DNA of 64,000 nt from Acidobacteriota bacterium. GTDB taxonomy: Bacteria; Acidobacteriota; Thermoanaerobaculia; Multivoradales; J023. Position numbers and translations under genes: made by a program. Under the pieces are notes generated by a model. That model was not told where the DNA came from and ran no database searches. It saw nothing but the letters and a program-made list of their open reading frames with translations. Each line of letters starts with the position of its first letter. Position 1 is the first letter of the stretch. Below, one piece after another: positions 9,096-50,084 of the stretch. Where the stretch lies: contig JBCCVZ010000005.1 in NCBI GenBank assembly GCA_039194425.1, positions 293,144-357,143 on the forward strand. The letters are read 5' to 3'.

Positions 9096-9101
9096 AGAAT
9101 C

Positions 9102-9133
9102 CGGCTGCGACGACCGGCCGATCGTCGCAGCCG
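9102..9133. terminator. 12-bp stem hairpin between convergent genes
   Basis: CGGCTGCGACGA / TCGTCGCAGCCG with an 8-nt loop. Confidence 0.6.
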
Positions 9134-9150
9134 ATCGGTCACCAGCTTGA

Positions 9151-9224
9151 AGGCACCCAGTCTCAAGGTGCTCAGCCTCAGGACACACAGCCTCAGGCCA
9201 CACAGCCGCAGGACACCCAGCTCA
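9151..9224. repeat. Degenerate 15-bp tandem repeat x5 (consensus about GGACACACAGCCTCA)
   Basis: Units at 9151, 9166, 9181, 9196 and 9211. Confidence 0.8.
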
Positions 9225-31109: not shown

Positions 31110-31117
31110 GCCGGACG

Positions 31118-34647: not shown

Positions 34648-35061
34648 ATGAGCAATTCACTCAACCGGGAGCTTCGTCCGCTCCTCGAGCCGGCCCACCG
34701 GCGACGCTTGATCCTCGAGGGGATCGAGCTGTTCAACACCGGCCGGTACTACGAGTGCCATGAAGCGTGGGAGACGGTCTGGCGTTCGACCACACCGGAG
34801 CCGAGAGATCTCTTCCAGGGGCTGATCCAGGTCGGTGTCGGCCTGTACCATCACCACGACCGCGGGCGTCCCGACGTCGCGCATCGCGTGCTGGGCAAGG
34901 GACAGCGCCGGCTCGAGACTCTCGCGAGCCCCTGTCTTGGGCTCGATCTGGAGCACTTGCTACGTCACGTGGTGGCCTGGCGACGCTGGCTGGCGTCACC
35001 CGACGGTGACCCGCCGCCGGCTCCGCGCGTGCGCGTCGTGCACCCGCGGGCGCTCTGTTGA
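34648..35061 (+). CDS. DUF309 domain protein
   Basis: GIELFNTGRYYECHEAWETVW...FQGLIQVGVGLYH. Confidence 0.85.
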   Translation: MSNSLNRELRPLLEPAHRRRLILEGIELFNTGRYYECHEAWETVWRSTTPEPRDLFQGLIQVGVGLYHHHDRGRPDVAHRVLGKGQRRLETLASPCLGLDLEHLLRHVVAWRRWLASPDGDPPPAPRVRVVHPRALC

Positions 35062-35116: not shown

Positions 35117-38100
35117 ATGGGATCTTTCGTCGTGACTTGGAGCTTCCGTGGCAGCAGGCGTGGGCCCGTGGAGGGGTTCGGTGGGGTCTGGGGCCTGGCC
35201 TGGAGCATGCTTTGCGCAATCCACCTGGTGGTGGTTTCCGCCGCCGCGCAGCAGCTCGACTTGCGACACTACGATCAGGCGGACGGCTTGCCGCAAAGTC
35301 AGATTCTGACCCTGGAGCGCGACCAGCTCGGCTACTTGTGGCTCGGCACGTTCTCGGGTCTGACGCGGTACGACGGTGCCGACTTCGATACCTGGACCAC
35401 CGACGACGGCCTGCGGGCTAACACAGTCTTTCAGCTCACGGTGGCCCCGGACGGTCGTGTGATCGTCCACTCGGCGGACTCTGTGTGCGTCGTCGACCCC
35501 GGGCGGCTCGACGTGATGCCGTCGGGCTCGGCCGGGGGCGACGCCATCGCGTGCCATCCGTTCGACCTGGGGTCGGTGCGCGGTCTGGCGATCGACCCCG
35601 ACGGAACGATTTGGGCTCCGACCGACCGTGGTCTCTTCGCGCTCGAGGTGCCGGGGCCGTCCGGCGGCGAAGCCAGCGAGCGTCTCTACGGTCTCGCCGA
35701 CGGACTGCCGAGCCTCGACCTGCGCGATGCCACGGTCGACGCCGACGGGACGGTGTGGATCGGCACAGCGGGTGGGCTCGTCCGCCTCGCCGCCGGTCGG
35801 TTCGAGACGGCCGACGGCGCCCTCGGCACGGCGGCGATCACGTTCGTCGCTCACGGACCGCCCGGTATCGTCGTCGGCACCGAGGACGCGGGGGTCTTCG
35901 TGCGCCGCGGCTCGGAGACCACCGCGGTGCCCCTGCCGGCCGTGGTCGAGGACACAGCCTTCTTCGACGCCGCGTTCGACCATTTCGAGCGCCTGTGGAT
36001 CGCCACCGGCCGCGGCGTCGTGCGTGTCGACGGGAACGACTCGCGTCTCTTCGGCCGGCAGAGTGGCCTGCCTTCGTCGTTGGTGCGCGAGATCGAGTTC
36101 GACGGTGAGCAGGTGCTCTGGTTGGGCACGGACGACGGTCTCGACAAGTTGGTGCCAGGGCCGTTCGCCACCTACGCGATGTCGGAGGGGCTGCCCAACC
36201 CGATGGTGCGGACGCTGGCCGTGGGGCCGCAGGGCCGACTGTGGGTCGGCACGCGCGACGGTGTCGCCGTCGGCGGAGTCGAGGGCTTCGACGAGATCCC
36301 GCTGCGCGGCATCGACGACCATCGGGTGTATGGCCTGGCGGCGGCGGAGGCCGGCATGCTGATCGGCACCCGCGACGGTCTTCTGTGGTGGCGCGGAGGC
36401 GAGATCGAGCGCCGCTGGCGCCGCGGCGACGACGGCTTGCAGAGCGACTTCGTGACCTCGCTCTTCGCCGACGGAGAGCGTGTCTGGGTCGGCACCGATC
36501 GCGGCATGGGGTGGTGGCACGAGGGGCGCTACGAGTTCCTCGACCGCCCTGAGCTGGCCGACTCGTTCGTGATGAAGATCCGGCGGGATCGTCGCGGTCG
36601 GCTGTGGGTCGCGACGACCTCGGGCGCCTTCGTCCTCGAAGCCCCCGAGCGCGGTGCCGACTCGCCGCTGCGCCGCCTGGGCGAGGCCGACGGGCTCACC
36701 CGGCAAGCGATCTGGGATCTCGATGTCGACGCCGAGGGCGGAGTTTGGCTGGCGACCAACGGCGACGGGGTGTTCCACGTCACCGCCGAGGAGGACATCG
36801 CACACTACGCGGTGGCCGATGGGCTCACCGACCCCTTCGTTTGGCAGAGCCTGGTCGACACCGACGGAGCGGTGTGGCTCTACACCAACCGTGGGCTCCA
36901 TCGCTTCGCCGGCGGCGAGTTCACGCATTTCGGCCCGGGCGAAGGCCTGAGCGTGCTCGAGGGAAGCGCCACGGCCTCGCTCGTCGGACCGGATGGGGCG
37001 CTGTGGTTCGGCACGCCGCGCGGCGTGGTGCGCTACGAGCGCGACCTCGCTCCGCCGCCGCTCGAGCCGCCGAGGGTGGTGATTCAGAGCGCTCACTCAG
37101 AGCGCCTCGGGCGGCTCGAGTCTGGGGCCTCGGTGCCCTGGAGCTTCGGCGGGTTCACGCTCCATTTCGCCGGTCTCTCGCTGCGCGACGAGGCGTCGGT
37201 GCGCTACCGCTGGCGCATTGTCGGCGGGGAGTGGTCGGAGGGTGCGTGGTCGGCGCCGGTGGTCGAACGCAGCCTGCGATTCGCCTCGCTCGCGCCGGGG
37301 CTCCATCGAATCGAGGTCGATGCGGCCAACGATGCCGGCTGGAGCGACGCACCGGCGCGTTTCGAGCTGCGCGTGACCCCGGCGCCGTGGCAGACCGTGC
37401 CGTTCCGGGTCGGCCTCGCGCTGGTGGCGGTAGGCATTGTGCTCGGCGCGGTCCGCCTCCGCATGCGCCGACTCGAGAACGAGCGCAGCCGCCTGGAGAC
37501 GCTGGTCGCCGAGCGCACCGCCGAGCTCGAGGCGAAGACTCGCTCGCTCGAGCGCGAGATCGGCGAGCGGACCGAGGCCGAGCGGGCGCGCCGGAGCCTC
37601 GAGGAACGCCTGCGCCAGTCCGAGAAGATGGAGGCGGTCGGCCGACTGGCCGGCGGTGTGGCGCACGACTTCAACAACTTGCTGACGTCAATCTACGGCT
37701 ACACCGAGCTTTTGCTCGCGGAGACCGAACCTGAGTCTCCCCAGCAGGTCGATCTCGAGGAGGTCCGGCGCGCCACCGAACGCGCGACCAAGCTCACCCA
37801 GCAGCTGCTCGCCTTCAGCCGTCGCCAGGTCATCGAGCCGGTGGTCCTGCACCTCGATCCGGTGGTGCTCGACTTGGTGCGCATGCTCGAACGGCTGCTC
37901 GGCGAGGACATCGATCTCGAGACCCGGCTCGAGGCCGATCCAGACCTGGTGCGGGTCGATCGCAACCAGCTCGAGCAGGTGTTGGTGAACCTGGCCGTCA
38001 ACGCCCGCGACTCGATGCCGCGCGGCGGCCGACTCGAGATCGGCACGCGCTTCGAGCCGGAGGCGCGCGGCGACTTCGACGGCGCGCCCGGTCCCGCCGT

Positions 38101-38740
38101 CGTGCTCGAAGTTCGCGACAGCGGAGAAGGGATCGAGGGGGAGCTGCTCGAGCACATTTTCGAGCCGTTCTTCACTACCAAGGAGCGCGGCCGGGGCACC
38201 GGCCTTGGCTTGGCGACGGTCTACGGCATCGTGCGGCAGAACGGTGGTGCGGTCGACGTCGACAGCACGCCCGGGCGCGGCACGACCTTCCGCGTCGTCT
38301 TGCCGGCCGCGGTCGGCGAGGTGGCCGAGCCGTGGAGCCGGCCTCGTCCGTCGGTCGAGATCGGGGGCGGTGAGGGGCTCTGCGTGTTGGTGGTCGAAGA
38401 CGAGCGGTCGGTGCGGACCTTGCTCGACAACCTCCTCGGCCGAGCCGGTTACCGTGTGACCACGGCGGCCGACTGCGCCGAGGCGTTGGCTAGTCTCGAG
38501 TCGATCGAGGAGCCCTTGAGCCTGCTGATCGCCGATCTCGTGATGCCCGGAGTCAACGGCCGCGAGGTCGCCGAACGGGTCGTCGCTCGCCGACCCGAGG
38601 CGCGGGTGCTCTTCATGTCCGGCTACCCGGCGAAGGTCCTCGGCCAGCGCGGCATTCTGCCCGCCGGCGCCGAGTTCCTGCCCAAGCCGTTCACTCCCCA
38701 GATGCTCTTCGATGCCGTGCAGGAGACTCTCGCGCGATGA
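35117..38740 (+). CDS. Hybrid sensor histidine kinase (beta-propeller Reg_prop repeats, Y_Y_Y, HisKA, HATPase, REC)
   Basis: Repeated GL..D..G.LW.GT motifs; LAGGVAHDFNNLL, NLAVNARD, PFFTTK, GTGLGL; REC motifs DLVMP and KPF; start may be downstream. Confidence 0.93.
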   Translation: MGSFVVTWSFRGSRRGPVEGFGGVWGLAWSMLCAIHLVVVSAAAQQLDLRHYDQADGLPQSQILTLERDQLGYLWLGTFSGLTRYDGADFDTWTTDDGLRANTVFQLTVAPDGRVIVHSADSVCVVDPGRLDVMPSGSAGGDAIACHPFDLGSVRGLAIDPDGTIWAPTDRGLFALEVPGPSGGEASERLYGLADGLPSLDLRDATVDADGTVWIGTAGGLVRLAAGRFETADGALGTAAITFVAHGPPGIVVGTEDAGVFVRRGSETTAVPLPAVVEDTAFFDAAFDHFERLWIATGRGVVRVDGNDSRLFGRQSGLPSSLVREIEFDGEQVLWLGTDDGLDKLVPGPFATYAMSEGLPNPMVRTLAVGPQGRLWVGTRDGVAVGGVEGFDEIPLRGIDDHRVYGLAAAEAGMLIGTRDGLLWWRGGEIERRWRRGDDGLQSDFVTSLFADGERVWVGTDRGMGWWHEGRYEFLDRPELADSFVMKIRRDRRGRLWVATTSGAFVLEAPERGADSPLRRLGEADGLTRQAIWDLDVDAEGGVWLATNGDGVFHVTAEEDIAHYAVADGLTDPFVWQSLVDTDGAVWLYTNRGLHRFAGGEFTHFGPGEGLSVLEGSATASLVGPDGALWFGTPRGVVRYERDLAPPPLEPPRVVIQSAHSERLGRLESGASVPWSFGGFTLHFAGLSLRDEASVRYRWRIVGGEWSEGAWSAPVVERSLRFASLAPGLHRIEVDAANDAGWSDAPARFELRVTPAPWQTVPFRVGLALVAVGIVLGAVRLRMRRLENERSRLETLVAERTAELEAKTRSLEREIGERTEAERARRSLEERLRQSEKMEAVGRLAGGVAHDFNNLLTSIYGYTELLLAETEPESPQQVDLEEVRRATERATKLTQQLLAFSRRQVIEPVVLHLDPVVLDLVRMLERLLGEDIDLETRLEADPDLVRVDRNQLEQVLVNLAVNARDSMPRGGRLEIGTRFEPEARGDFDGAPGPAVVLEVRDSGEGIEGELLEHIFEPFFTTKERGRGTGLGLATVYGIVRQNGGAVDVDSTPGRGTTFRVVLPAAVGEVAEPWSRPRPSVEIGGGEGLCVLVVEDERSVRTLLDNLLGRAGYRVTTAADCAEALASLESIEEPLSLLIADLVMPGVNGREVAERVVARRPEARVLFMSGYPAKVLGQRGILPAGAEFLPKPFTPQMLFDAVQETLAR

Positions 38741-39351
38741 CGCTGACGACGATCGAGCGCGCCCCGGGTCGCGCCGAGGCGCTGGTCCGTCGCTGGTACC
38801 AGCCGGTCCGCGGCTACTTCCGCGGCCTCGGCCTCTCGCTCGACGAGGCCAAGGACCTCACTCAGGAGACATTCTTGCGCGCCACTCGCGCCGCCGACGA
38901 CTATCGCGGCGGCCTCGACGAGGCGAGCTGGATCTTCACGATTGCCGACAACGTGTGGAAGAACGAGCTGCGGCGCCGCGGCGCGCAGAAACGTGCCGCG
39001 GACACGGTGTCGCTCGAGAGCAGCGCGCCGGGTGACTATGACGAGGGCGAAGCGTGGCTCGACCCACCGGCACCGGCCGCCGGGCCGCTCGATCGGGCGC
39101 TCGATCGGGAGCGTCGGGAGCGTCTCGAGAGCGCCATCGCCACCTTGCCGCCGCGGATGCGCCGCTGTTTCGAGCTGCGGTTCGTGGAGCAGATGAAGTA
39201 TCGTGAGATCGCCGCGCTCGAGCAAGTGAGCGAGAGCACGGTGAAAACGCAGATGTTCCAGGCGCGCCGCAGGCTGCGCGAGCTGCTCGACGACGACAGC
39301 GCGTTCGCCACGGCGGCCGACTCCCGCGACGACTTCGAGGAGGCGATGTGA
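38737..39351 (+). CDS. ECF-type RNA polymerase sigma factor
   Basis: DLTQETFL, WIFTIADN, LPPRMRRCFELR, YREIA and TVKTQMFQARRRL motifs. Confidence 0.93.
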   Translation: MTLTTIERAPGRAEALVRRWYQPVRGYFRGLGLSLDEAKDLTQETFLRATRAADDYRGGLDEASWIFTIADNVWKNELRRRGAQKRAADTVSLESSAPGDYDEGEAWLDPPAPAAGPLDRALDRERRERLESAIATLPPRMRRCFELRFVEQMKYREIAALEQVSESTVKTQMFQARRRLRELLDDDSAFATAADSRDDFEEAM

Positions 39352-40091
39352 GCACACCCTCCGAGCCTTGGCGTGACGCCTTGTCCGCCGTGTCCCGCGA
39401 ACGCGCCGCGCGTGCGCCCGAGGTCACGGTCGCCGAGCTCGTCGCCTACCGTCGCGGCCGGCTCGCCGAGGACGACGCCAATCGGGTGCGCGAGGCGCTC
39501 GCCGCGCAGGCGTCTCTGCGCGCGCTCTACGCCGCGGTGCCGGCGGACGACCCCGAGCCGGTAGTCGACGATCCCGAGGTCGACGCGGCGGTCGCGTGGC
39601 TCCGAGAGCAGTCGGAGGGCGCGGACCGGGTCGTCGCGATCGACACGCGGCGCAGCGGCACGCCTTGGCGCACGGTCCTGGCGACGGCCGCGCTCGCTCT
39701 GGTCGCGGTGGCGACGGTCTTCGTCTTCGGTCCAGGGGCCGAGAATCCGCGTTTTGAGTTGGTCTTCGGTGTGCAGGATGAGGGCGTCCGCGGAGGCGGG
39801 CCGACGGTAAAGACGATCGAGGTGGAGCCGACGCGACCGTTCGTTCTCGTCGTGCCGGACGACCTGCTCGACGACGGGTCGTGGCAGGTCAAGCTGTGCG
39901 GTCCGATCCAGCATGTGCCGAACCGCCCGGACTGCGACGATCCGATCCTCAAGCACCCGGTCGACGCCGAGCATCGGGAGGTCGAGGTCGGACCGCTCGA
40001 TGCCGGGTACTACGTCGTCTTGGTCGAGGAGACCGAGGGCGCGAAGTTCCATTCCATGGTTCTCGAGGTGGTCCTCGACGACGACCGATGA
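39348..40091 (+). CDS. Putative membrane anti-sigma factor
   Basis: Coupled to the sigma gene (GTGA overlap); ASD-like ELVAYRRGRL; single TM; C-terminal extracytoplasmic domain. Confidence 0.7.
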   Translation: MSTPSEPWRDALSAVSRERAARAPEVTVAELVAYRRGRLAEDDANRVREALAAQASLRALYAAVPADDPEPVVDDPEVDAAVAWLREQSEGADRVVAIDTRRSGTPWRTVLATAALALVAVATVFVFGPGAENPRFELVFGVQDEGVRGGGPTVKTIEVEPTRPFVLVVPDDLLDDGSWQVKLCGPIQHVPNRPDCDDPILKHPVDAEHREVEVGPLDAGYYVVLVEETEGAKFHSMVLEVVLDDDR

Positions 40092-43000
40092 TCGCGGACT
40101 GGCCTCGAGCAGGGCAGCACGCACTCCGCCGGGACCTCATGCGCCTGCTTGCCGGCCTCGGGCTCGTCGGCCTGGCTGCTGCTCTTGTCTGTGGTTCCGA
40201 GGAGCCGGGCGTGGGGCTCGAGCTCGGTCAGCGGGAGTCGACCCAGGCGCTAACGGCCGGCCAGCAGCGCGAGCATCTGGTGGATCAGAGTTCGGACCGA
40301 GACGAGTCGGTCGTCTGCTTTGTCCAGTCGTGGCGACCGCATCGCGTGGACGCGGCGAGTGTGCGCCGCGTCGGTGGGCTGACGCTGCTGGTGACGACGA
40401 GCTCGATTCTTCGCGTCGACGCGCTGGGCGACGCCGGCACGGGGGGCGAAGTCGATCTCCTGTGCTCCGCTGCCACGCTCGCCGCCGCGCGCCGGGTCGA
40501 GGCGCTCGGCGAGCTCCTCGACATCGCCGAACGCCTGCGCGCCATGCCTGTGTCGAACGTCGCGGCGGCGGACTGGATCGATCAGACCTACGAGGCCGTC
40601 GCGCACGGTTTGAATGGCCTCACCGACGCCGACGATTCCCGATGGTGGCGACAGGCGGCGGGGGAGGTGACGCTGCGGCGGGCTCGCTGGCGCGCCGTGC
40701 GCGGTCACGCCAAGCTCGCTGACGCGCTCTTCCGGCGCGCCGCCGACAAGCTGGCGGCGGGCGGCGCCGTCGAGCAGGGGCATGCGGCGCTCCTGGTGGG
40801 AGTCAGCGACTTGCGGCGTCTCGGTCGCCTCGAATTGGCCTGGAAGCTCGCGACGACCGCGGTCGAGCGCGCCGAGGCCCTGGCAGACGACCGCGACGTC
40901 GACCCCGACCTCGCGCTCGAGCTACAGGCTGCTGCGTACGATCGCCTGGCGCGAGTCGAGCTCGACCTGCGCGCGCTGCAGTCTGCCCTGGGGCACTACC
41001 GGCGTGCTCTGGCGCTCGACCAGCAGCGGATCAAGCGGCTGCTCGAGGAGCCGGACGGGTCTCACGCCGGGGCGTCGACGTCCTCTCGCCGTCGCTGTGG
41101 TGTTCCCGGAGCTCAGCTGCCACTTGAAACCGTGATGTACGAGGAGGCGTGCGCTTTCGACCTCGCGCCGGCCGCCTTCACGTCCGGAAAGGGCGGCGTG
41201 CCGGGGTCCGTCGACCTGGCGCGCCGCCATCGGCGGGTTGGCGTGGCGCACCTCCAGCTCGGAGACTTCGACGACGCCATCCACTCCTTCCAGTGTGCCC
41301 TGCACTGGCGGACCGCCGACACGCGGTGGAACACGGTCGCTGGCGCCTGCCAGGGACTTGCTGATGCAATGCGAGAGCGCGAGGAACTCAATACGGCGCA
41401 GCAGATTCTCGAGGTCCTGGTCGAGCAGCCGGGCTCGTCGGCCGACCTCGCCGATCGGGAGAGGCAGCTCGGCCTGCTCGCCTGCAATGACGCCGAGCGC
41501 TCACCGACGCAGCGCCTCGAGGCTGCGCGCGCGCATCTGGCGCGCTCGCTCGCTCACGCCGATCACGAAGCGCTGGGCGGTTTGCGGGTCGACCTGCAGA
41601 TGGAACGCGCCGAGCTCGAGCTGTCGTCGCCCTGCGCCGATCCGCGCGAGGGTGACCTCAAGAGCGCCGCACGGGCTCTAGCCGACGTGGCGTCGGCGCC
41701 GGAGTCCGTGCTGACGCCGGCCCGTCGTGCGCACCTCGACTTCCTCCAGGGACACCTCGCCGAGGCGCGAGGGGACCTCGAGACCGCGGCCGCTGGCTTT
41801 GCTGCTGCGGCCCGGCGCCTCGATCGACTGCTGTCCGCTCCCGACACGTCGCTCCACCGCGCCATCGCCTCGATGCACCGTGCCGCGCGGGGACGGGACG
41901 AGAGAGTCGATCTCGCGGCGCGTGCGCGGGTATACCGGGAGGCGGAGATCCGTCTGCGATTGCGGCGGGGTACCGCTGAGAGCTCCGAGGTGTCGGCGGC
42001 CCTGGCCGAAGAGACGGCCGCAATGGCGCTCGGCTGGATCGGGCGCTCGGAGCTCTGGTGGCAGGCACGCCGCGCAGCCCGGGGCGCAAACGAGTCGAGG
42101 GGGCATGCGGCGCTCTCCGCCGATCTCGCAGGGGACGAGCTCGCGGCGTGCGGCACCAAATCTGTCACCAAGGCCGACCACGCAACCGGGGGCGACGACC
42201 GCGCCTGCCTCGACGCACTGCGTGCGCGCCTGCCAGACGACACCACCGCGTTGGTCTACTGGTACGGCGAGTCGATCGTCTACGCCTGGGCGCTGCGCCG
42301 CGAGCGCGTGCACTTTGCCTCGCTCGAACGCTTGCCCCTCGACAAGGCTCTGGGCAAGCTGCAGAAGGCGATGCAACCAGGCGCCGAGGAGGACGAGTTC
42401 GATGAACCGCTCGACGCCCTCTCGGCACAGCTCCTGGAGCCCTTCTCTGACTCGATCGACGCCTCCGAGCGCCTACTCGTCGTCCTCGACGGACCGTTGC
42501 ACGGCGTCCCCGTCTGTGCCCTCCGGCGCACCTGGCGCGACGCGGACCCACCCCTCGGGGGTGAGCCCGCGCCGCCGCTGATCGCGAGTCACCGCGTCGA
42601 GCGCACCGCGTCGCTGCCGGTGCACCTGGCGGCGCCGCAGCGTCTGCACGAGGCTCCTGGCGCGGAACGCACCGCGCTCCTCGTCGCACCGTTCTACGAC
42701 GGCTCGAACCACTGGCGGCCCCTCGACGGGCCAGAGCGCGAGGTGGCGGAGCTGGCGCTGCGCCTCGAGCCGGCGGCCGAGGTCGAGGTCTTGCGTGGCG
42801 ACGCGGCGACCAAGTCCGCGTTCCTCGACGCGCTGCCGTCGGCGAGGTGGGTCCATTTCGCCGGCCACGCCGACGGTTCGCTGCGCCACGCCGACGACGC
42901 CGTGCTCGCCCTGTCGCCGGGCCCCGCGGGTGACCGCGAGCTCCGCGCGGCGGAGATCGCCTCGCTCGAGCTGAGCGCCGAGCTGGTGGTGCTCGCCGCC

Positions 43001-43300
43001 TGCCGCAGCGGCCTCGGCGAGGAGCTCGACGGCGAAGGACTCTTCGGCGTCGCGCGCGCCATGCGCCGCGCAGGCGCACGGGCCGTCGTCTCGACTCTTT
43101 GGCAGATCGACGACGAGGCGACCGTTCCCTTCGTCCTCGACCTCTATGACCGTCTGCTCTCCGGCGCGTCGCCGTCGTCGGCGCTGCGTCAGACGCAGAT
43201 CGAGGCCGCGCGGCGAGGCATGGCGACTTCGGTGTGGGCGGCGTTCGTGCTCGAGGGCGACGGAGCGCCGCCGCTGGTCTCCGACCCGTCGGGTTCCTGA
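40088..43300 (+). CDS. Exported TPR + CHAT (caspase-like) protease
   Basis: Hydrophobic N-terminus ending ALVC; helical repeats; LDGPLHGVP, HFAGH, LAACRSGLG...GEG, STLWQI and WAAF motifs. Confidence 0.9.
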   Translation: MIADWPRAGQHALRRDLMRLLAGLGLVGLAAALVCGSEEPGVGLELGQRESTQALTAGQQREHLVDQSSDRDESVVCFVQSWRPHRVDAASVRRVGGLTLLVTTSSILRVDALGDAGTGGEVDLLCSAATLAAARRVEALGELLDIAERLRAMPVSNVAAADWIDQTYEAVAHGLNGLTDADDSRWWRQAAGEVTLRRARWRAVRGHAKLADALFRRAADKLAAGGAVEQGHAALLVGVSDLRRLGRLELAWKLATTAVERAEALADDRDVDPDLALELQAAAYDRLARVELDLRALQSALGHYRRALALDQQRIKRLLEEPDGSHAGASTSSRRRCGVPGAQLPLETVMYEEACAFDLAPAAFTSGKGGVPGSVDLARRHRRVGVAHLQLGDFDDAIHSFQCALHWRTADTRWNTVAGACQGLADAMREREELNTAQQILEVLVEQPGSSADLADRERQLGLLACNDAERSPTQRLEAARAHLARSLAHADHEALGGLRVDLQMERAELELSSPCADPREGDLKSAARALADVASAPESVLTPARRAHLDFLQGHLAEARGDLETAAAGFAAAARRLDRLLSAPDTSLHRAIASMHRAARGRDERVDLAARARVYREAEIRLRLRRGTAESSEVSAALAEETAAMALGWIGRSELWWQARRAARGANESRGHAALSADLAGDELAACGTKSVTKADHATGGDDRACLDALRARLPDDTTALVYWYGESIVYAWALRRERVHFASLERLPLDKALGKLQKAMQPGAEEDEFDEPLDALSAQLLEPFSDSIDASERLLVVLDGPLHGVPVCALRRTWRDADPPLGGEPAPPLIASHRVERTASLPVHLAAPQRLHEAPGAERTALLVAPFYDGSNHWRPLDGPEREVAELALRLEPAAEVEVLRGDAATKSAFLDALPSARWVHFAGHADGSLRHADDAVLALSPGPAGDRELRAAEIASLELSAELVVLAACRSGLGEELDGEGLFGVARAMRRAGARAVVSTLWQIDDEATVPFVLDLYDRLLSGASPSSALRQTQIEAARRGMATSVWAAFVLEGDGAPPLVSDPSGS

Positions 43301-43310
43301 GGGGCCTCTC

Positions 43311-43334
43311 AACCTTTTTCTGGCGCCGGGGTCT
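43311..43334 (+). promoter_or_regulatory. Possible ECF-sigma promoter upstream of the 49-aa peptide gene
   Basis: AAC-N17-GTCT, a generic ECF -35/-10 layout; short motif, weak evidence. Confidence 0.35.
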
Positions 43335-43397
43335 CCGCCCCTGTGCGCCATCGAATCATGCCGCCCGGCGCCGCGGCACGACGGAAGGAGACCTCTC

Positions 43398-43547
43398 ATG
43401 CAGTGGAACCATGCGCAGACCTCGATGCTCGACCTCGCGGCCCCGTTCTTCGGTGATCCGCCCGACGATCCGCCTCCCGGTGGCGGCAAGCAGGGCATCG
43501 ACGGCGAAGCCGAAGAGTCTCCGGGCTCGAGCTCGAGCCCGGGCTGA
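43398..43547 (+). CDS. 49-aa acidic Pro/Gly/Ser-rich peptide
   Basis: Strong RBS GGAAGGAG 7 nt before ATG; MQWNHAQTSMLDLAAPFFGDPPDDPPPGGGKQGIDGEAEESPGSSSSPG. Confidence 0.65.
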   Translation: MQWNHAQTSMLDLAAPFFGDPPDDPPPGGGKQGIDGEAEESPGSSSSPG

Positions 43548-43614
43548 GCACGGACGATGAACGCACGCGGCGGCCCGCCTCGGCGCGCCGCCGCGTTCTT
43601 GGGGACCGGATTCG

Positions 43615-44994
43615 ATGAAGAGCCCTGCACGGGACCTGCCGACAGGACGCTGCCTCGCCGTCGACGCCGAGAGCGGCGACTATGCCTTCGCGCCGATGAC
43701 GGCGTCGGCGCTGGCGCGCCGCATCGCCGGTCGTCCGCTGTCCCGCCGGCCCGTGGCCTATGGCATCGCCGCCGGCGATCTCGCGGAGGCCGGATGGGGC
43801 ATGATCGTGCCCCACGACCTCGACCCCCACATCGACGAGGCCCTGGCGCCGCTCGTGGGTCGGCGCCGCGAGGAGACCGGCGACGCGCTCTATCGCCGCC
43901 TGGTTCACATCCCGGGGCGCCGAGCCGGCGACCTGTTGGCCTCCCTGCGCGCCGGACCCGGCCGCGTCGACCCCCGGCGCTTGCCGTACTACCTGTTGTT
44001 CGTCGGTGATCCGGAGTCGGTGCCCTACGGCCTTCAGCACGACCTCGCGATGCAGCATGCGGTCGGTCGGCTCGATCTCGCGACGCCCGACGAGTACGCG
44101 GCCTACGCCTCGACCGTGCTCGCCGCCGAGGACGCCGCGATCCGGCGCATCGACGAGCGCTCGATGGCCGTCTTCGCGCCGCGCCACGGCGACGACCCGG
44201 TGTCGCGCGTGTGCCGCGACGATCTCGCGCGGCCGCTGGCCGACGCGCTGCGCCCCCGTCTCGGCGATCGTCTCGAGGCCATCGTCGGCGACCCCGCTGA
44301 CCGTGATTGCTTCGATCGCCTGCTCGGCGCCGAGGGACCGTCGTTGTTGGTGGGTGTCGGGCATGCGCTCACCCTGCGCCTCGGCCGCCCCGGCAGGAGT
44401 GAGCGCCAGGGCGCGGTGATCGGAGCCGGCTGGGGTGGGCAGCAGGCCGGGCCGGTGCCGCGGGCGCTCTGCTTCGAGGCCGAGGACGTCGGCGCGCGGC
44501 GGCTCGAGGGGCAGATCGTCGTCCTGGTCGGCTGCTTTACCGCCGGCACGCCGCGCGGCGACTCCTACGCGGCGCCGGAGGCGGCGGAGAGCTTCGGCGA
44601 CGAGGCGACGCAGGGCGTGCGCGCGCTCGGCGAGGGTGCAGTGCTCGATCCGCCCTTCGTCGCCGCGCTGCCACGGCGCTTGCTCGCCGCCGGCGCGCTC
44701 GGCGTCATCGGCCATGTCGATACCGCGTTCGAGCACGGTTTTCGCTGGCCGGAGGGAGAGCCGCAGATCGGTGCCTTCCGCGAGCTCGCCGAGGCGCTGC
44801 TCGACGGTCGCCGGACGGGCCTCGCGATGGAGGCCTTCGGACAGCGCGCGCTGCACCTCGGCCAGCAGCTGCTCGAAGCGACGATCGGCCGCGGCGATCG
44901 AGCGGTCGACGAAATCTACCGCTGGATCGCGTACCACGACGCGCGTTCCTACGTGCTGCTCGGCGATCCGGCGGCGCGCTGGCCGCGCGGCTGA
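43615..44994 (+). CDS. Gingipain/peptidase C25-like (clan CD) cysteine protease
   Basis: PYYLLFVGDP and AVGRL motifs; putative dyad GVGHA / LVGCFTAG; terminal YVLLGDPA. Confidence 0.72.
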   Translation: MKSPARDLPTGRCLAVDAESGDYAFAPMTASALARRIAGRPLSRRPVAYGIAAGDLAEAGWGMIVPHDLDPHIDEALAPLVGRRREETGDALYRRLVHIPGRRAGDLLASLRAGPGRVDPRRLPYYLLFVGDPESVPYGLQHDLAMQHAVGRLDLATPDEYAAYASTVLAAEDAAIRRIDERSMAVFAPRHGDDPVSRVCRDDLARPLADALRPRLGDRLEAIVGDPADRDCFDRLLGAEGPSLLVGVGHALTLRLGRPGRSERQGAVIGAGWGGQQAGPVPRALCFEAEDVGARRLEGQIVVLVGCFTAGTPRGDSYAAPEAAESFGDEATQGVRALGEGAVLDPPFVAALPRRLLAAGALGVIGHVDTAFEHGFRWPEGEPQIGAFRELAEALLDGRRTGLAMEAFGQRALHLGQQLLEATIGRGDRAVDEIYRWIAYHDARSYVLLGDPAARWPRG

Positions 44995-45009
44995 TTTGGA
45001 CACCGCGCC

Positions 45010-47184
45010 GTGAGAGGTCGTCGCCCAGCCCCTCGACATCAGGGACCGAGCCGGCATGCCCTGCTCGTCGGCGTCGAACGATACCCGGGCTTCGACGACT
45101 CGGTGACCCTGCGTGGCTGCCGCAACGACGTCGCGCTCGTCGCCTCGGTGCTGCGTGAGCGCTTCGGATTCGACGACGGACCGCACGCGGGACGCTTCGA
45201 CGTTCTGCTCGACGAAGAGGCGACGCGCGATGCGGTGGTCGCGGCGCTCGGACGGCTCTTGCAGGCCATCGCGCCGGGCGATGTCGCCGTCGTCTACTTC
45301 AGCGGCCACGGCTCGCAGGTCACCGACCTCGAGGGCGACGAGGGCGATGGGCTCGACGAGACGCTGGTGCCCTTCGACGGCACGCGGCGGGGGCCCCATC
45401 GCGAGATCACCGACGACGAGATCCACGCCTGGCTCGCCGTCGCCGCCGCGAAGACCCACTTCGTCACCACGATCTTCGACTGTTGCCATGCCGGCAGCCT
45501 GTGGCGCCACCGCGGTCCGATGCGCATCCGCCGGGTCGCGCCCGATCGGCGCTCGGCGGTGGCGCTGCGGAGACCGCCGCGTCCTTCGTGGGCGCGCAGG
45601 ATGAGAAGGAGCCGAGCGGACGGAGAGATCGCGCCGGTCCTCGACCACGTCCATCTCGCCGCGTGCCGCGACGACGAGCTGGCCGGCGAGTTGATGGCGT
45701 CGCAGACCGGCTGCGGAGTCCACGGCGCCTTCACCTTCCACCTCTGCCGGGCGCTGCTCGATGCCCGGGGAGACGCCACCTGGCGCGACGTGATCGAATG
45801 CGTGCGCGGCACGATCGTCGCCCACCACCCCGCGCAGACTCCGGAGGTCGAAGGCGCGCGCGATCGCCTGCTCTTCGGCGTCGGCGACCTGCCGCCGCGG
45901 AAGCATGTCTTGGTGAGCGCCCGTCGCGAGCCGACACGAGCGAATTCGGCCGGCGCGTCGCCGAGGGTCGAGCTGGCGGCGGGTGCGGCTCTCGGTCTCA
46001 CCGCCGGCTCGCTCTGGCGGCTGACAGCTCCGGGATCGCGCGATGCCTCGACTCCGGTCGGACGGCTGCGCCTCGACACGGTCGGTGCCGCGCGCGCCGC
46101 CGGACCGCTGCTCGAGGAGAGGTCCGCGGGCCTTGTCGCTGCCGGCTGCCGCGCCTTCGAGGAGGCACACCACCACGGCGACCCGGTGCTCACGGTCGGC
46201 GTCGCCCGCCGCGGCGTGACGCGCCGCGAACTGCCCGCGTCGTCGCTGCGGGCGCTGGAGCGAAGCCTCGACGCGGCGCCGCTGCTGCAACGCGTCACGC
46301 TCGACGAGGCCGAGGTCCAGGTCTGGGCGCTCGGCCGTCGAGGCGGCGCGGCGGCGGACGATCCGGTGCCGCAGCTCGGCGCTCTCGGCGAGCCGGTGTG
46401 GGCGTTGGTCGACGCCGGTGGACGCCTGCTCGAGACGCCGCGTCCAGTCGTGGGCGATGCCGACGCGCAGCGGCTCGGCGTCATCTCGAGACTCGTCACG
46501 CGCCTGGTGCGCCAGGCGCGCTGGCGTCGCGCCTTGGCGCTCGAGAACCCCGATCCGTCGAGTCGCCTGCGCGGCCGCGTCGGCTTCGAGCTGCTGCGGT
46601 GCTCGGAGGACGGCTCGTGGGGTGTGTGGCCAGCGGGGGAGGATCCGTTCTACGACGAGGGTGGACGTTTGGCGTTCGCGCTCGAGAACCGCTCGGCCGA
46701 GCCCGTGTACCCGTACGTCGTCGATTTCGGGTTCACCGGCGGCATCGATCTGCTCTACCCGCCGCGCGGAGGCCACGAGCTGCTCGAGCCGGGTCTCGCG
46801 CTGAGTACCGGGGTTGCCTCGACGATCGCCGATCGCTCGATCCGGCTCGGCTTTCCGCGCGACTGGCCGCGCTCGGACGATCCGGCGACCGGCCGGCCGA
46901 CTCCCGGGCCTGGCGTACTCAAGCTCTTCGCCACCACGACGCCGGTCGATGTCGAGCTGCTGACCCAGCCCGTGCCGTGGCGTACGCGCCCCGGTGAGCT
47001 GGCGGGAACGGGCCGACGCGATCATCCCCTGGCCCGGCTGCTGGCGCTCGACGATGGGCTACAGCGCCTGCGCGGTTTCGAGCTCGCCGAGGATTCGGCG
47101 CGCGATGGCGGTGCGTGGGCCGACGACTGGACGACCGAGATTCGTCGCTACCTGCTCGTCCCGTGGGACGAATCAGCACGCTGA
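45010..47184 (+). CDS. Metacaspase (peptidase C14) with C-terminal DUF4384-like domain
   Basis: ALLVGV, LRGCRNDV, YFSGHGSQ, DETLVP, IFDCCHAG, HGAFT and QTP motifs. Confidence 0.92.
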   Translation: MRGRRPAPRHQGPSRHALLVGVERYPGFDDSVTLRGCRNDVALVASVLRERFGFDDGPHAGRFDVLLDEEATRDAVVAALGRLLQAIAPGDVAVVYFSGHGSQVTDLEGDEGDGLDETLVPFDGTRRGPHREITDDEIHAWLAVAAAKTHFVTTIFDCCHAGSLWRHRGPMRIRRVAPDRRSAVALRRPPRPSWARRMRRSRADGEIAPVLDHVHLAACRDDELAGELMASQTGCGVHGAFTFHLCRALLDARGDATWRDVIECVRGTIVAHHPAQTPEVEGARDRLLFGVGDLPPRKHVLVSARREPTRANSAGASPRVELAAGAALGLTAGSLWRLTAPGSRDASTPVGRLRLDTVGAARAAGPLLEERSAGLVAAGCRAFEEAHHHGDPVLTVGVARRGVTRRELPASSLRALERSLDAAPLLQRVTLDEAEVQVWALGRRGGAAADDPVPQLGALGEPVWALVDAGGRLLETPRPVVGDADAQRLGVISRLVTRLVRQARWRRALALENPDPSSRLRGRVGFELLRCSEDGSWGVWPAGEDPFYDEGGRLAFALENRSAEPVYPYVVDFGFTGGIDLLYPPRGGHELLEPGLALSTGVASTIADRSIRLGFPRDWPRSDDPATGRPTPGPGVLKLFATTTPVDVELLTQPVPWRTRPGELAGTGRRDHPLARLLALDDGLQRLRGFELAEDSARDGGAWADDWTTEIRRYLLVPWDESAR

Positions 47185-47207
47185 CCGCTCACAACCTCGG
47201 AGACGAC

Positions 47208-49184
47208 ATGAACAGTCCAGATGCGACGCGACAGGAACCAACATTCGCTGCGGCTCTCGAGCGCTACGCCACGTTCGACCTCTTCGTCACGCTCGAGCCC
47301 GAAGGATCGCGCTGGCGCGTGTCACACATCGACGACGGTCGGCTCGTCGAGACGCGCGTCGCTGCGCCGTTCGAGCCCGGCGAGCTCGACGACCTGCTGG
47401 AGCGTCTCGGCTGGTCGCGCAGTCGTGACGCCCGGCGCGAGGAGGCCGAGCCGCGCGCCGCCGCGATCGAGATCGGCGAACGCCTCTACCGCGCTCTCTT
47501 CGCCGCCGAGGTCGGCCGCTGTTGGCGCGCGGCTCGTCGACGTGCGCGGGAGGAGGCGAGTGGGCTGCGCCTGCAGCTGCACGGGCCCGAGCTCGACGCG
47601 CTGCCCTGGGAGCTGCTGTGCGACCCCGAGAGCCGAACGCTCCTTGCCGCGTCGGTCGAGACGCCGCTGTCGCGCGTGCCCGGCAAGCGCGCGGAGCGGC
47701 GGCTTCAGATCCTGGTCGAACCGCTGCGCGTTCTGGTCGTGGTCGCCGCGGGCGACCTCGATGTCGATGCAGAGATCGAGCGCATCGACGATGCACTGAA
47801 GCCCATGGTGGCACGGCGCCGCGTCGTGCTCGAGGTTCTGCGCCGACCGTCCGCGGACGCGCTGCGGGCGCGGCTGCGCGACAGCGAGAGCCCGGTGCAC
47901 GTGCTGCACTTCATCGGTCATGGCCGCTACGATCCGGACCAAGGCGAAGGCTGGCTGAGGCTGGCGGACGGCGCGGTCGACACGGAGGGCGTCGCGGCGG
48001 AGCCCGAGGAGGTCGACGCCGGGCGTCTTGCCCGCTGGATCGACGGCAGCGCCATTCGCTTCGTCGTGCTCAACGCCTGCGAGAGCGCCCGTCACGCCGG
48101 CAGCACGGCGCTGCGCGGCGTGTCGGAGGCGTTGGTGCAGCAGCGCGTGCCGGCGGTGCTGGCGATGAAGGCACGCATCGCCGACGATGTCGCCATCGGG
48201 TTCGCCGCGGCCCTCTACCGCGCTCTCGCCGCCGAGGCTCCGGTTGACGTCGCGGTCGCTGCCGCCCGCTCGCATGTTCTCGACCAGTGGACGACGAACG
48301 AATGGGCGCTGCCCGCGCTCTACCTCCACAGCGAGAATGCGCAGCTCTTCAGTCTCACCCCCCGCCGGCGTCGGCGGTGGGAGCTCTTCCCGGCCGGCGC
48401 CGTGGTCGGCGGACTCGTTGCTGCCTTAGTCGCCTGGTGGTTCTGGCCGCCTCCGGCGTCGGATCCGCGCTGCCCGTCGCCGCGCGGAATCCACCTTCCC
48501 ATGGTTTTCGTGGCCGCCGATGCCTTCTACATGGGGTCGGACGAGCGGTCCGACGAGAGGCCGATTCATCTTCAGACAGTCGAGCAGGATTTCTGCATCG
48601 GCCAGTACGAGGTGACCCGGGAGCAGTGGGGGCATTTCATGGGTGACGACGTGCCGGAGTTCCGGGAGGATGGTGCTGCGAACGAGCCCGTGCGATTTGT
48701 CTCGTGGAATCGGGCCAACAAGTTCATCGAGGCGCTGAACCGCGCTTCGAGTGGGGATCCATTCGATCTCCCGACGGAAGTGCAGTGGGAGTACGCTGCA
48801 CGTGCTGGCTCCGAGGATCTCTTCTTCTTCGGTGACGACCCGGAGCTCCTGCACTACTTTGGCAACTGCCGCAATCCTGTCAGCGACGACTATGAGGATG
48901 CCGTGGCACCGGTCGGCAGCTTCAACCGCAACGACTGGCATCTCTACGACGTCCACGGCAACGTCTCGGAGCTCACGAAGACCATCTATCGGCCCTACGC
49001 CGAGGGCCCGCCCAAGCCCGAGGAGCTCGAGGAAATCCGCTATGTCCGGAGGGGAGGAAGCTTCGACGTGATCCCGGACAGCTGCCGGCTCGCGCGTCGC
49101 TTCACCATCGACTCGGAATGGGTTCAGCGTGATGTCGGTCTTCGCATCGTCCGGACGGCGCTCGAACTCGACGACATCGAATAG
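47208..49184 (+). CDS. CHAT protease + TM + FGE-sulfatase (SUMF1/CLec) domain protein
   Basis: LPWELL, LHFIGHG and VLNACES motifs; RRRRR then TM; FYMGS, YEVT, LPTEVQWEYAARAG, DVHGNVSE and RGGSF motifs. Confidence 0.9.
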   Translation: MNSPDATRQEPTFAAALERYATFDLFVTLEPEGSRWRVSHIDDGRLVETRVAAPFEPGELDDLLERLGWSRSRDARREEAEPRAAAIEIGERLYRALFAAEVGRCWRAARRRAREEASGLRLQLHGPELDALPWELLCDPESRTLLAASVETPLSRVPGKRAERRLQILVEPLRVLVVVAAGDLDVDAEIERIDDALKPMVARRRVVLEVLRRPSADALRARLRDSESPVHVLHFIGHGRYDPDQGEGWLRLADGAVDTEGVAAEPEEVDAGRLARWIDGSAIRFVVLNACESARHAGSTALRGVSEALVQQRVPAVLAMKARIADDVAIGFAAALYRALAAEAPVDVAVAAARSHVLDQWTTNEWALPALYLHSENAQLFSLTPRRRRRWELFPAGAVVGGLVAALVAWWFWPPPASDPRCPSPRGIHLPMVFVAADAFYMGSDERSDERPIHLQTVEQDFCIGQYEVTREQWGHFMGDDVPEFREDGAANEPVRFVSWNRANKFIEALNRASSGDPFDLPTEVQWEYAARAGSEDLFFFGDDPELLHYFGNCRNPVSDDYEDAVAPVGSFNRNDWHLYDVHGNVSELTKTIYRPYAEGPPKPEELEEIRYVRRGGSFDVIPDSCRLARRFTIDSEWVQRDVGLRIVRTALELDDIE

Positions 49185-49247
49185 CCCTCGCGCGCTTGTC
49201 GTATGCTCGGGGTTCCGATCCCGATCCGCCAACCGTGGAGGCCCGCG

Positions 49248-50084
49248 ATGTTCCAGAGACTCTCCAACAGCTGGGAGCTGGTGAAGGCCAGCGCTCAAGT
49301 TCTCAAGGCCGACAAGGAGCTGATGGTTTTTCCGCTCCTCTCGTTCCTCGGCCTGGTCGTCACCTGTGTCCTCTTCTTCGTGCCGGCCTCCGCCTTCGCC
49401 TTTGGCGGCGAGGCCAGCCAGGCGATGGAAATCGTCGCCTACGTCGCGCTCTTCGTCTTCTATGTCGCTTCCACCTTCGTCGTCGTCTTCTTCAACTCGG
49501 CGCTGGTCGGCGCCGCGCTGATTCGGCTCGACGGCGGCGACCCGACGGTTGCCGATGGTCTTCGCATCGCACGCCAGCACCTCGGCTCGATCTTCGCGTG
49601 GTCGGTGCTCGCGGCCACCGTCGGCATGATTCTGCGCGCCGCGCGCGAGCGCTCGGGTGGCCTCGGCCGCATCGTCATCGGCATGGTCGGCCTGGCCTGG
49701 AACCTCGCTACGTTCCTCGTCGTGCCGGTGCTGGTGAACCGGGGCCTCGGTCCGATCGACGCGTTGAAGGAAAGCGCCACCCTGCTCAAGCGCACCTGGG
49801 GCGAGCAGATTGCGGGCAACCTCGGCATCGGTGCCGTGTTCTGGGTGATCGGCATCGTCTACACCATCATCGCCGTACCGATCGTGATCCTCGCCGTCGG
49901 CACCGGCTCGATGGCGGTGATCGGCGTCGCCGTCGCCCTGATCGGACTCGGCTACGCCCTGATCACCCTGGTCTCGGCGACCCTCAGCGGCATCTACTCG
50001 GCGGCTCTCTACCGTTTCGCCACCGAGGGTGAAGTCGCCTACCTCGACCGTCGCCTGCTCGAGAACGCCTTCGTCGCCAAGTGA
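49248..50084 (+). CDS. Conserved integral membrane protein (DUF6159-like)
   Basis: SWELVKAS..VL..DKEL, ATFLVVPVL, LKRTWGEQ and AALYRFA motifs; multiple TMs. Confidence 0.65.
   Translation: MFQRLSNSWELVKASAQVLKADKELMVFPLLSFLGLVVTCVLFFVPASAFAFGGEASQAMEIVAYVALFVFYVASTFVVVFFNSALVGAALIRLDGGDPTVADGLRIARQHLGSIFAWSVLAATVGMILRAARERSGGLGRIVIGMVGLAWNLATFLVVPVLVNRGLGPIDALKESATLLKRTWGEQIAGNLGIGAVFWVIGIVYTIIAVPIVILAVGTGSMAVIGVAVALIGLGYALITLVSATLSGIYSAALYRFATEGEVAYLDRRLLENAFVAK

Follow-up and report, generated by a model that had tools for sequence, protein, structure and literature searches.

A predicted two-part cassette pairing a split sigma/anti-sigma/TPR-CHAT module with caspase-like proteases in an Acidobacteriota genome

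The window considered here is a stretch of 64,000 nucleotides (nt) from the genome of an Acidobacteriota bacterium (assembly GCA_039194425.1, contig JBCCVZ010000005.1, positions 293,144 to 357,143 of the forward strand), in which eight + strand open reading frames (ORFs) follow one another between positions 35117 and 49184. Apart from the first of them, a histidine kinase gene, these ORFs form, by sequence comparison, a real and conserved two-part cassette. The sensor-regulator half encodes a sigma factor of the extracytoplasmic function (ECF) type, a membrane anti-sigma factor and a protease with TPR and CHAT domains (TPR-CHAT). The output protease operon encodes a small peptide, a gingipain-like protease (C25-like), a C14 metacaspase-like protease and a CHAT protein joined to an FGE-like domain (CHAT-FGE). 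The scheme proposed for the whole, in which an envelope signal would cause the TPR-CHAT-dependent loss of the anti-sigma factor and thereby the sigma-driven expression of the protease operon, is judged slightly more probable than its opposite. The narrower claim that the sigma factor transcribes the genes of the peptide and the three proteases is fairly likely. That the output is defence or death is a tentative proposal, with somewhat less than an even chance.

The original prediction, made from the letters of this DNA, described eight co-oriented genes with such domains, 4-bp overlaps among the leading genes and four proteins carrying His/Cys dyads of clan CD. The ORF list and Pfam confirm the genes and their domains, direct reading of the sequence gives the overlaps as ATGA at 38737, GTGA at 39348 and ATGA at 40088, and the dyads are found in the TPR-CHAT, C25-like, C14 and CHAT-FGE proteins. 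The G+C content of the window is around 70%. The host genome, which belongs to the Thermoanaerobaculia, comprises 8.1 Mb in 47 contigs and is 95% complete, and at eight of its loci a CHAT domain has an ECF sigma gene 3-4 kb upstream. Its RpoB shares 89-90% identity with proteins labelled as coming from metagenome-assembled genomes of Thermoanaerobaculia or Acidobacteriota, and the host is therefore an uncultured acidobacterium rather than a myxobacterium. The sequencing runs listed are DNA runs, with no RNA run holding the locus among them.

A gene-neighbourhood survey had been set by the original prediction as its test. Such a survey was anchored on the C25-like family, with 456 relatives and one genome per species; the best 79 of the 456 loci were kept and searched with custom hidden Markov models, and their genes were called as homology-anchored ORFs. 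Within these best 79 loci, a same-strand CHAT gene lies directly upstream of the C25-like gene in 23 of the 69 that have at least 1.5 kb of upstream sequence. Where an upstream TPR-CHAT gene is combined with at least 7 kb of flank, the sigma gene is present in 13 of 18 loci and was not found in the other five. The C14 gene directly follows the C25-like gene in 8 of 67 loci, and the full set of sigma, TPR-CHAT, C25-like, C14 and second CHAT is found in five of the 40 fully flanked loci (L011, L017, L049 and L062 from Acidobacteriota, and L044 from Myxococcota). Most other loci, from Chloroflexota, Actinomycetota and other groups, carry a C25-like gene and a CHAT gene with no sigma gene. The host genome itself holds the paralogue L006 on contig 19, which encodes sigma, anti-sigma, TPR-CHAT, C25-like, CHAT and C14 proteins at 30-40% identity. 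The genes therefore do occur together elsewhere, contrary to the lack of co-occurrence that the original prediction had named as a refutation, and, because the arrangement recurs in paralogous as well as in orthologous loci, it lies far beyond chance.

A physical link between the two halves is provided by natural fusions of TPR-CHAT and C25-like proteins, found as L008 (1579 aa, host genome, contig 18) and as P0043. The L008 fusion consists of TPR-CHAT, an acidic linker in the place of the peptide gene and the C25-like domain; because such fusions join these elements, the TPR-CHAT and C25-like genes are tied together. L008 is preceded by a gene for a CHAT protein with a transmembrane (TM) segment and by a divergent gene for an OLD-family ATPase (AAA_15 plus OLD-like TOPRIM), of a type often met in defence islands. 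At three of the five sigma-less loci (L038, L042, L060), an anchored TPR-CHAT gene is followed by the C25-like gene at a distance of 0-41 nt, which leaves no room for a promoter or a peptide gene; these loci may represent a sigma-less form of the system. Immediately upstream, L038 and L060 carry a CHAT-FGE gene in antisense orientation. As far as sequence comparison can tell, the cassette is patchy and fast-diverging: of the 301 genomes sampled from the phylum, 10 contain the C25-like family, and its identity within the genus is at most 44%, with the nearest RpoB relatives found (listed without their genus) being 89-90% identical.

The sensor-regulator half was followed through 22 sigma-plus-TPR-CHAT loci, namely the window, seven paralogous loci of the same genome and 14 loci from other genomes. 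In the sigma tree, one clade (support 95/82) unites all 14 sigma factors of the orthologous loci and seven of the eight CHAT-linked sigma factors of the host genome, and none of its 16 other ECF sigma factors falls there. On this tree, the cassette sigma factors are a dedicated clade. Between the sigma and TPR-CHAT genes, a single-TM gene of about 235-300 codons is found in 21 of the 22 loci, and it overlaps the TPR-CHAT gene by 4 bp in eight of 22. The product in the window is predicted to consist of cytoplasmic anti-sigma helices, the membrane helix and a periplasmic beta-rich domain of about 119 aa. In alignment A4 (n=21), which leaves out a candidate from L002 that looked spurious, the motif HLxxCxxC is seen by eye in 16 members, and Pfam zf-HC2 is matched by 13 of 21, the member in the window not among them. 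Many members of A4 also have in common an Arg-Gly pair some 25 residues behind the TM helix, which is a candidate cleavage site. The family profile matches ChrR (E 1.8e-6), RslA (3hug_B, 1e-4) and the N-terminal domain of DdvA (8rlz, 0.017). The assignment of the 247-aa protein as an anti-sigma factor, already made in the original prediction, is borne out by the alignment, these profile matches and the zf-HC2 members, and within this family of true anti-sigma factors the protein is a member without zinc ligands. The host genome also carries an RseP homologue at another place.

The TPR-CHAT protein begins with a hydrophobic segment at residues 17-35 that ends in Cys35, followed by a poorly modelled N-terminal region, a TPR solenoid and the CHAT domain at residues 773-1058. 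Its dyad, H927/C972, is invariant in 22 of 22 sequences (alignment A2). The N-terminal hydrophobic segment recurs in 21 of the 22 TPR-CHAT proteins and is followed by Cys in 15; from this segment an export or anchor signal is predicted, as the original prediction had it, and the cassette TPR-CHAT proteins are probably exported and lipid-anchored. The AlphaFold2 model has a predicted local distance difference test (pLDDT) value of 69.6, and its best Foldseek matches in the PDB are Csx29 (1.7e-14), DdvA (8rw5, 1.9e-14, 18% identity) and separases. A profile of the CHAT domain alone finds Csx29 at E of about 3e-3 and separase at 0.04, and the full-length profile is swamped by TPR proteins. Single-sequence phmmer searches with the TPR-CHAT and C25-like proteins returned no matches among PDB sequences. 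The prediction of a complex between TPR-CHAT residues 190-1070 and the periplasmic domain of the anti-sigma factor (residues 129-247) gave a score of 0.22, relative to a mark of 0.32, a value that speaks neither for nor against their contact.

The junction between the two halves contains a candidate start point for the output operon. A promoter at 43311 was claimed by the original prediction, and an ECF-type -35/-10 motif, AAC-N17-GTCT, lies exactly there. With a spacer of 17 or 18 nt, the motif is found within 100 nt after the TPR-CHAT stop codon in 8 of the 22 loci (binomial P about 1e-12, for a motif defined post hoc and loci that are kin); over 958,194 nt of background it occurs 63 times, or 0.0066 times per 100 nt. 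Across the window, AAC-N17-GTCT was found three times, with 3.4 occurrences expected by chance. The loci L014 and L077 likewise carry an AAC...GTCT motif, and a variant, TAACCA...GTTCTCC, is present in L053, L063 and L080. The DdvS promoters, as described in PMC6061681, belong to the AAC/GT class, with GTAA-n16-CGT.

The peptide gene, also named in the original prediction, proves to be conserved in position: a comparable small ORF follows the TPR-CHAT gene in 18 of the 22 loci, with a length of 47-105 aa, low hydrophobicity and a Shine-Dalgarno sequence. The loci counted as lacking it are L004, L005 and L007, whose candidates are basic or hydrophobic, and L006, which has none. These small proteins are rich in Pro, Gly, Asp, Glu, Ser and Thr, and 17 of 18 are acidic. 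Their sequence conservation is slight, and a patch of the form aromatic-Pro/Gly...Gly-Asp/Glu recurs by eye. The peptide of the window is itself acidic and rich in Pro, Gly and Asp, with one Lys and no Arg, and it has neither a TM segment nor a signal sequence. Between its stop codon and the start of the C25-like gene (43548-43614), the window contains a G+C-rich inverted repeat and then GTTCTTGG. At L051, L053, L063 and L080, the small ORF is separated from the C25-like gene by an extra ORF of about 150 aa, whose N-terminus is hydrophobic and which contains the conserved stretch 'ERWIWWxYT'; this ORF is missing in the window.

The output operon combines three different caspase-family proteases. 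The C25-like protein matches Peptidase_C25 at E 0.0027, with 17.4 bits relative to the cut-off of 23 bits; among its 109 homologues, PF01364 is precomputed in 18, and P0043 scores 36.9 bits. H250 and C307 are invariant in 25 sequences. The AlphaFold2 model (pLDDT 86.7, predicted template modelling score 0.90) finds the gingipains Kgp (6i9a) and RgpB as the top Foldseek matches (E 2.5e-8 to 5e-6, TM-score 0.45-0.49), followed by separase, Csx29 and DdvA. Neither a hydrophobic N-terminus nor a TM segment is found in this protein, which is accordingly predicted to be a cytoplasmic protease. The C14 protein contains the motifs 'SGHG' and 'DCCHAG', and the CHAT-FGE protein contains 'IGHG' and 'NACE', which are taken here to be the respective catalytic pairs. 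The C-terminal extension of the C14 protein, about 440 aa long, is conserved among cassette orthologues, with matches in L009, L011, L001, L033, L049 and L010; its look-alikes in the Atlas are DUF4384-type modules, which serve as a lead only.

For the last gene, ATG at 47208 is a more likely start than GTG at 47115. Its product had been placed in the cytoplasm by the original prediction, which is not borne out: a TM helix separates the CHAT and FGE domains here and in all eight CHAT-FGE proteins from other loci. A run of Arg precedes this helix, and from this run and the position of the helix between the domains it follows that the CHAT domain should face the cytoplasm and the FGE-like domain the outside. 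CHAT-FGE is thus predicted to be a membrane-spanning, receptor-like protein with CHAT inside and an FGE-like domain of the C-type lectin fold outside. The NCBIfam matches of the FGE domain (PvdO, GldK, EgtB) all lie far under their cut-offs, and PADLOC reports a 'SAVED_CHAT' match (E 9e-14) at residues 44-376, a span that includes the CHAT domain. FGE-like domains have been viewed as binders in conflict systems (PMC7159879, whose main text mentions neither sigma factors nor CHAT); because of this published view and of its place behind the TM helix, the FGE-like domain is treated here as a putative sensor.

The closest known system, which the original prediction did not name, is DdvS/DdvA of Myxococcus, of which the sensor-regulator half of the cassette is a split form. 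Both comprise an ECF sigma factor adjoining a single-pass anti-sigma factor of the zinc-finger class, a periplasmic TPR-CHAT fold with a His/Cys dyad (the location being predicted here from the hydrophobic segment), an available RseP homologue and promoters of the AAC...GT class. DdvA 8rw5 is among the top two PDB fold matches of the TPR-CHAT protein in the window. Four differences are evident. First, DdvA is one polypeptide, whereas the anti-sigma factor and TPR-CHAT are encoded by two genes in all 22 loci, and a separate signal or anchor is predicted for TPR-CHAT. Second, DdvA has an N-terminal zinc-binding CHCC/HxxxCxxC domain, whereas the anti-sigma factor of the window is devoid of zinc ligands. 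Third, the DdvS regulon includes the cyclic-oligonucleotide-based anti-phage signalling system (CBASS) and type III-B CRISPR-Cas, where CRISPR stands for clustered regularly interspaced short palindromic repeats, whereas the adjacent candidates here are caspase-like proteases. Fourth, DdvA-like proteins are reported in the main text of PMC11506125 only from Myxococcota and one Comamonas, whereas the host of the window belongs to the Acidobacteriota. In PMC11506125, the TPR-CHAT part of DdvA is proposed as the site-1 protease, and the RseP step is shown.

In the scheme put forward for the window, the anti-sigma factor would hold the sigma factor at the membrane until an envelope signal activates the periplasmic TPR-CHAT protein. 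Acting as a site-1 protease, TPR-CHAT would then remove or clip the periplasmic domain of the anti-sigma factor, after which RseP would cut the membrane helix and free the sigma factor. The released sigma factor would transcribe the peptide-protease operon from the AAC-N17-GTCT promoter. CHAT-TM-FGE may provide a second trigger, gated by a ligand, and switch on the C14 and/or C25-like proteases, in the way that SAVED-CHAT acts on PCaspase, and the peptide may be a substrate or a brake. If these steps hold, the output would most likely be the growth arrest or death of the threatened cell, i.e., defence. Sequence analysis itself gives the genes, their catalytic residues and predicted topologies, their conservation and the promoter motif; from these, each cleavage step, the tie between sigma factor and promoter, and the phenotype are inferred.

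A number of observations weigh against this scheme. The exact promoter motif is missing in 14 of the 22 loci, and it was defined after inspection of the data, in loci related by descent. Within 450 nt upstream of the sigma gene, AAC-N17/18-GTCT was not found in 21 of 22 loci (L072 has one); for this reason, there is no autoregulatory copy that would tie the motif to the sigma factor. The anti-sigma factor of the window has no HxxxCxxC zinc ligands and no Pfam match by itself. As for the protease, a canonical lipobox is present in only three of the 22 TPR-CHAT proteins, that of the window being non-canonical, and residues 35-137 are poorly modelled. With E values of up to 0.1 allowed, DdvA was not among the matches of the CHAT profile, so the likeness of TPR-CHAT to DdvA is one of architecture and fold. 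The L008 fusion has no signal peptide, and the sigma-less loci couple an anchored TPR-CHAT gene directly to a signal-less C25-like gene; the fusions and this tight coupling suggest that the two proteins are in direct contact in some variants, which fits poorly with their location in different compartments. Finally, the defence models of PADLOC give only generic caspase and CHAT matches, and none of them extends over the cassette.

The most serious alternative, though an unlikely one, is that the sigma and anti-sigma factors make up an ordinary switch for envelope stress, in which the anti-sigma factor is cut by a different site-1 protease. The TPR-CHAT lipoprotein would then be a co-expressed partner, for instance a ligand sensor, an RseB-like protector or a periplasmic protease with other substrates. 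This agrees with the usual role of TPR domains, which is to bind proteins, and with the divergence of the window protein's N-terminal region. It also agrees with PMC11506125, where DdvA mutants of the catalytic dyad are reported to still repress DdvS and no self-cleavage is reported upon phage infection; on these published data, CHAT-mediated cleavage is therefore unproven even in the model system. An active protease is nevertheless suggested by the invariance of the dyad across the 22 TPR-CHAT proteins, and the order of the anti-sigma and TPR-CHAT genes, with their frequent 4-bp coupling, is kept across phyla and becomes a single polypeptide in DdvA.

The small ORF leads to a second alternative, in which the downstream operon would serve peptide maturation or signalling, with the clan CD proteases cutting a disordered precursor into a signal or alarm peptide or another bioactive product instead of acting as executioners. 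The ORF is the first one after the promoter and has a strong ribosome-binding site, and its presence in 18 of 22 loci is compatible with such a precursor. Some of the peptides are internally repetitive, with about six repeats in L017 and three in L062. Metacaspases and gingipains are specific for Lys or Arg, and the single Lys of the window peptide, with no Arg, would offer one site to such a protease. A stable hairpin of the kind found behind many precursor genes follows the small ORF with significance (z < -2) in five of 18 loci (L001, L018, L037, L053 and L080); the hairpin after the window's own peptide is not significant (z -0.46). On the other side, the conserved genes of the cassette include neither an exporter nor a modification enzyme, the peptide is barely conserved and without a signal sequence, and to spend three different large proteases on a single small peptide would be uneconomical, which leaves peptide maturation quite unlikely. 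That the two halves are mere neighbours without a common pathway, with the sigma factor regulating other genes and the caspase-like genes being independently regulated members of a large set of paralogous proteases that cluster as in an island, is very unlikely: the unusual caspase-family load of the genome (39 CHAT matches, eight C14 matches and five C25-like copies) raises the chance of adjacency here, C25-like and CHAT genes occur without sigma in many loci of Chloroflexota and Actinomycetota, and no sigma gene was found in five of the 18 loci with an upstream TPR-CHAT gene, but the full set recurs in the same order in five distant genomes, sigma accompanies 13 of the 18, the cassette sigma factors form one clade with a promoter motif at the junction, and fusion proteins join TPR-CHAT to the C25-like domain.

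For the output half of the proposed scheme, the best precedent is the SAVED-CHAT cascade. In the type III-B system of Haliangium ochraceum, SAVED-CHAT activates PCaspase, which in turn cuts many proteins, and the system includes a small inhibitor (PCi), a sigma factor and an abortive phenotype (bioRxiv 10.1101/2023.06.23.546230). The two have in common a CHAT protein and a C14-type protease that are encoded with a sigma factor and a small protein. Unlike that system, the window encodes no SAVED domain (Pfam finds only CHAT and FGE-sulfatase in 47208-49184), and no cyclase or CRISPR-Cas family was found in the scanned ORFs. The sensor of the second CHAT protein is here an extracytoplasmic FGE-like domain behind a TM helix, and a gingipain-like protease is added. 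Instead of having a CI-2-like fold, the small protein is acidic and disordered, and the sigma factor is paired with a classical membrane anti-sigma factor.

The type III-E Craspase, with Cas7-11, the TPR-CHAT protein Csx29, Csx30/Csx31 and RpoE, shares with the cassette a TPR-CHAT protein that is proposed to release an ECF-type sigma factor (PMC10028731), and its Csx29 is the best structural match of the window TPR-CHAT as well as the best profile match of its CHAT domain. Craspase is, however, cytoplasmic, RNA-guided and CRISPR-dependent, and it acts on Csx30 with Cas7-11, whereas the TPR-CHAT protein of the window is predicted to be exported and its sigma factor to be held by a membrane anti-sigma factor. 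Neither Cas7-11 nor any other cas family was found in the 38 window ORFs scanned with Pfam (the remaining ORFs lie outside the scan), in agreement with the original prediction; cyclase families were equally absent from the scanned ORFs, and Tandem Repeats Finder (TRF) reported no CRISPR-like array in the window. The sole Cas1-like match of the genome is weak and lies on a different contig.

With the gingipains (MEROPS C25), the C25-like protein shares the fold of the catalytic domain and the His/Cys dyad. In contrast to them, it consists of the catalytic domain only, with no signal peptide, pro-domain or secretion/sorting domain, and it stays below the Pfam threshold. Metacaspases fused to FGE-sulfatase make up 33 of 671 prokaryotic metacaspases according to PMC3501461; here the FGE domain is instead fused to CHAT and not to C14, with a TM helix in between. 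The ECF54 sigma factors are described in PMC8999054 and PMC7826278 as actinobacterial, with CHAT, subtilase or carboxypeptidase genes in their context and no anti-sigma factor, whereas an anti-sigma factor is present in the window cassette. Literature searches, which covered no supplements (among them table S7 of PMC11506125 and, for the ECF groups, the tables of PMC7826278), turned up DdvA, Craspase, SAVED-CHAT and ECF54, and no split sigma/anti-sigma/TPR-CHAT cassette with caspase-like genes.

Table 1. Positions of the cassette genes, the promoter-like motif and other features, in window coordinates unless a contig is named.
Feature	Position	Strand	Remarks
Hybrid sensor histidine kinase	35117..38740	+	Reg_prop, HisKA, HATPase_c, REC (Pfam); 4-bp overlap with sigma gene
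ECF sigma factor, regions 2 and 4	38737..39351	+	Pfam Sigma70_r2/r4_2; NCBIfam sigma70-ECF
Single-pass anti-sigma factor, 247 aa	39348..40091	+	TM 110-128; no Pfam match alone; family profile
Exported/anchored TPR-CHAT protease	40088..43300	+	CHAT E 2e-49 (Pfam); predicted signal/anchor
ECF-type promoter-like motif AAC-N17-GTCT	43311..43334	+	11 nt after TPR-CHAT stop
Small ORF, 49 aa	ATG 43398..stop 43547	+	strong Shine-Dalgarno; GGAAGGAG 7 nt upstream
Gingipain-like (C25-like) clan CD protease, 459 aa	43615..44994	+	Peptidase_C25 sub-threshold; H250/C307
C14 metacaspase-like protease, domain 15-282	45010..47184	+	Peptidase_C14 E 2e-24; PADLOC 'caspase' E 1.3e-22
Receptor-like CHAT-TM-FGE	47208..49184	+	CHAT + FGE-sulfatase (PF03781 E 1.5e-34); TM 393-411
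DUF6159 polytopic membrane protein	49203..50084	+	Pfam, TM scan; 18 nt 3' of CHAT-FGE
L008 ORF	contig 18, 150001-168000: 3613-5523	-	
L008 ORF	contig 18, 150001-168000: 5652-7700	+	
L008 ORF	contig 18, 150001-168000: 7667-12406	+	

The kinase gene at the head of the row had been counted as part of the cascade locus by the original prediction. Its translation is coupled here to that of the sigma gene, and the TM scan places periplasmic Reg_prop propellers between TM 26-44 and TM 761-779. The kinase is missing next to the sigma gene at the paralogue L006, where the upstream neighbour is a gene resembling nonribosomal peptide synthetases (NRPS-like), and at the orthologous loci; its homologues in three congeneric genomes (41-45% identity) have no cassette downstream. 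For both reasons, the kinase lies outside the conserved unit and was rejected as a cassette member. The DUF6159 gene at the other end is possibly co-transcribed with the cassette and was rejected as well, with no match at other loci. A NarL-type response regulator (REC plus GerE) at 50319-51026, which together with the kinase brackets the cassette, is not conserved at other loci and was likewise rejected.

Further upstream, a DUF309 gene (137 aa) at 34648-35061 ends 55 nt before the kinase gene and is preceded by a long intergenic region and a divergent 753-aa Trans_reg_C regulator on the - strand (32162-34423). The window contains a second TPR-CHAT gene in the region 27382-32149, which encodes 1119 aa (CHAT E 5e-36) with no N-terminal hydrophobic segment and is followed by a 123-aa ORF that matches no family and then by a radical SAM gene (31076-32149). 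In its TPR part, the protein is similar to the TPR protein of the FxSxx-COOH system (NF040586, E 4.5e-27, far under the cut-off), and the region may form a CHAT or peptide-modification module of its own. The intergenic positions 5691-5791 hold 3.5 exact copies of a 29-bp tandem repeat, in a part of lower G+C content (61% around 4-6 kb); it was ruled out as a CRISPR array, having no spacers. The other genes of the window are housekeeping or regulatory by Pfam and include topoisomerase subunits, GcvT, QueA, Obg, an oligopeptide ABC system and enoyl-CoA hydratases, among others.

A more far-reaching proposal can be built on the cassette, although as a whole it is improbable. The window would encode a CRISPR-independent caspase cascade with two signals, in which a periplasmic TPR-CHAT lipoprotein licenses transcription by destroying the separate anti-sigma factor, the receptor-like CHAT-TM-FGE protease senses a second, external ligand and activates the cytoplasmic C14 and gingipain-like executioners, otherwise restrained by a securin-like disordered peptide, and the outcome is killing or arrest of the cell. 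Condensed derivatives of this arrangement would be seen in DdvA and in the fusions of TPR-CHAT with C25-like proteins, and each of the eight sigma modules in this genome with 39 CHAT genes would be tuned to a different cue.

For DdvA, the action of CHAT as the site-1 protease is unproven and the signal is unknown according to PMC11506125; in the window cassette, the protease and its proposed substrate are split into two polypeptides, and cleavage in trans is therefore directly testable. The cassette would also connect sensing at the envelope with three different proteases of the caspase family, in a setting free of CRISPR and cyclic-nucleotide machinery, and it brings in new parts, namely the receptor-like CHAT-TM-FGE protein and a conserved disordered peptide. 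To our knowledge, the Acidobacteriota are an abundant phylum that has hardly been studied for immunity or programmed death. If the cascade is true, bacterial signalling by protease relay would reach beyond type III CRISPR and into this phylum.

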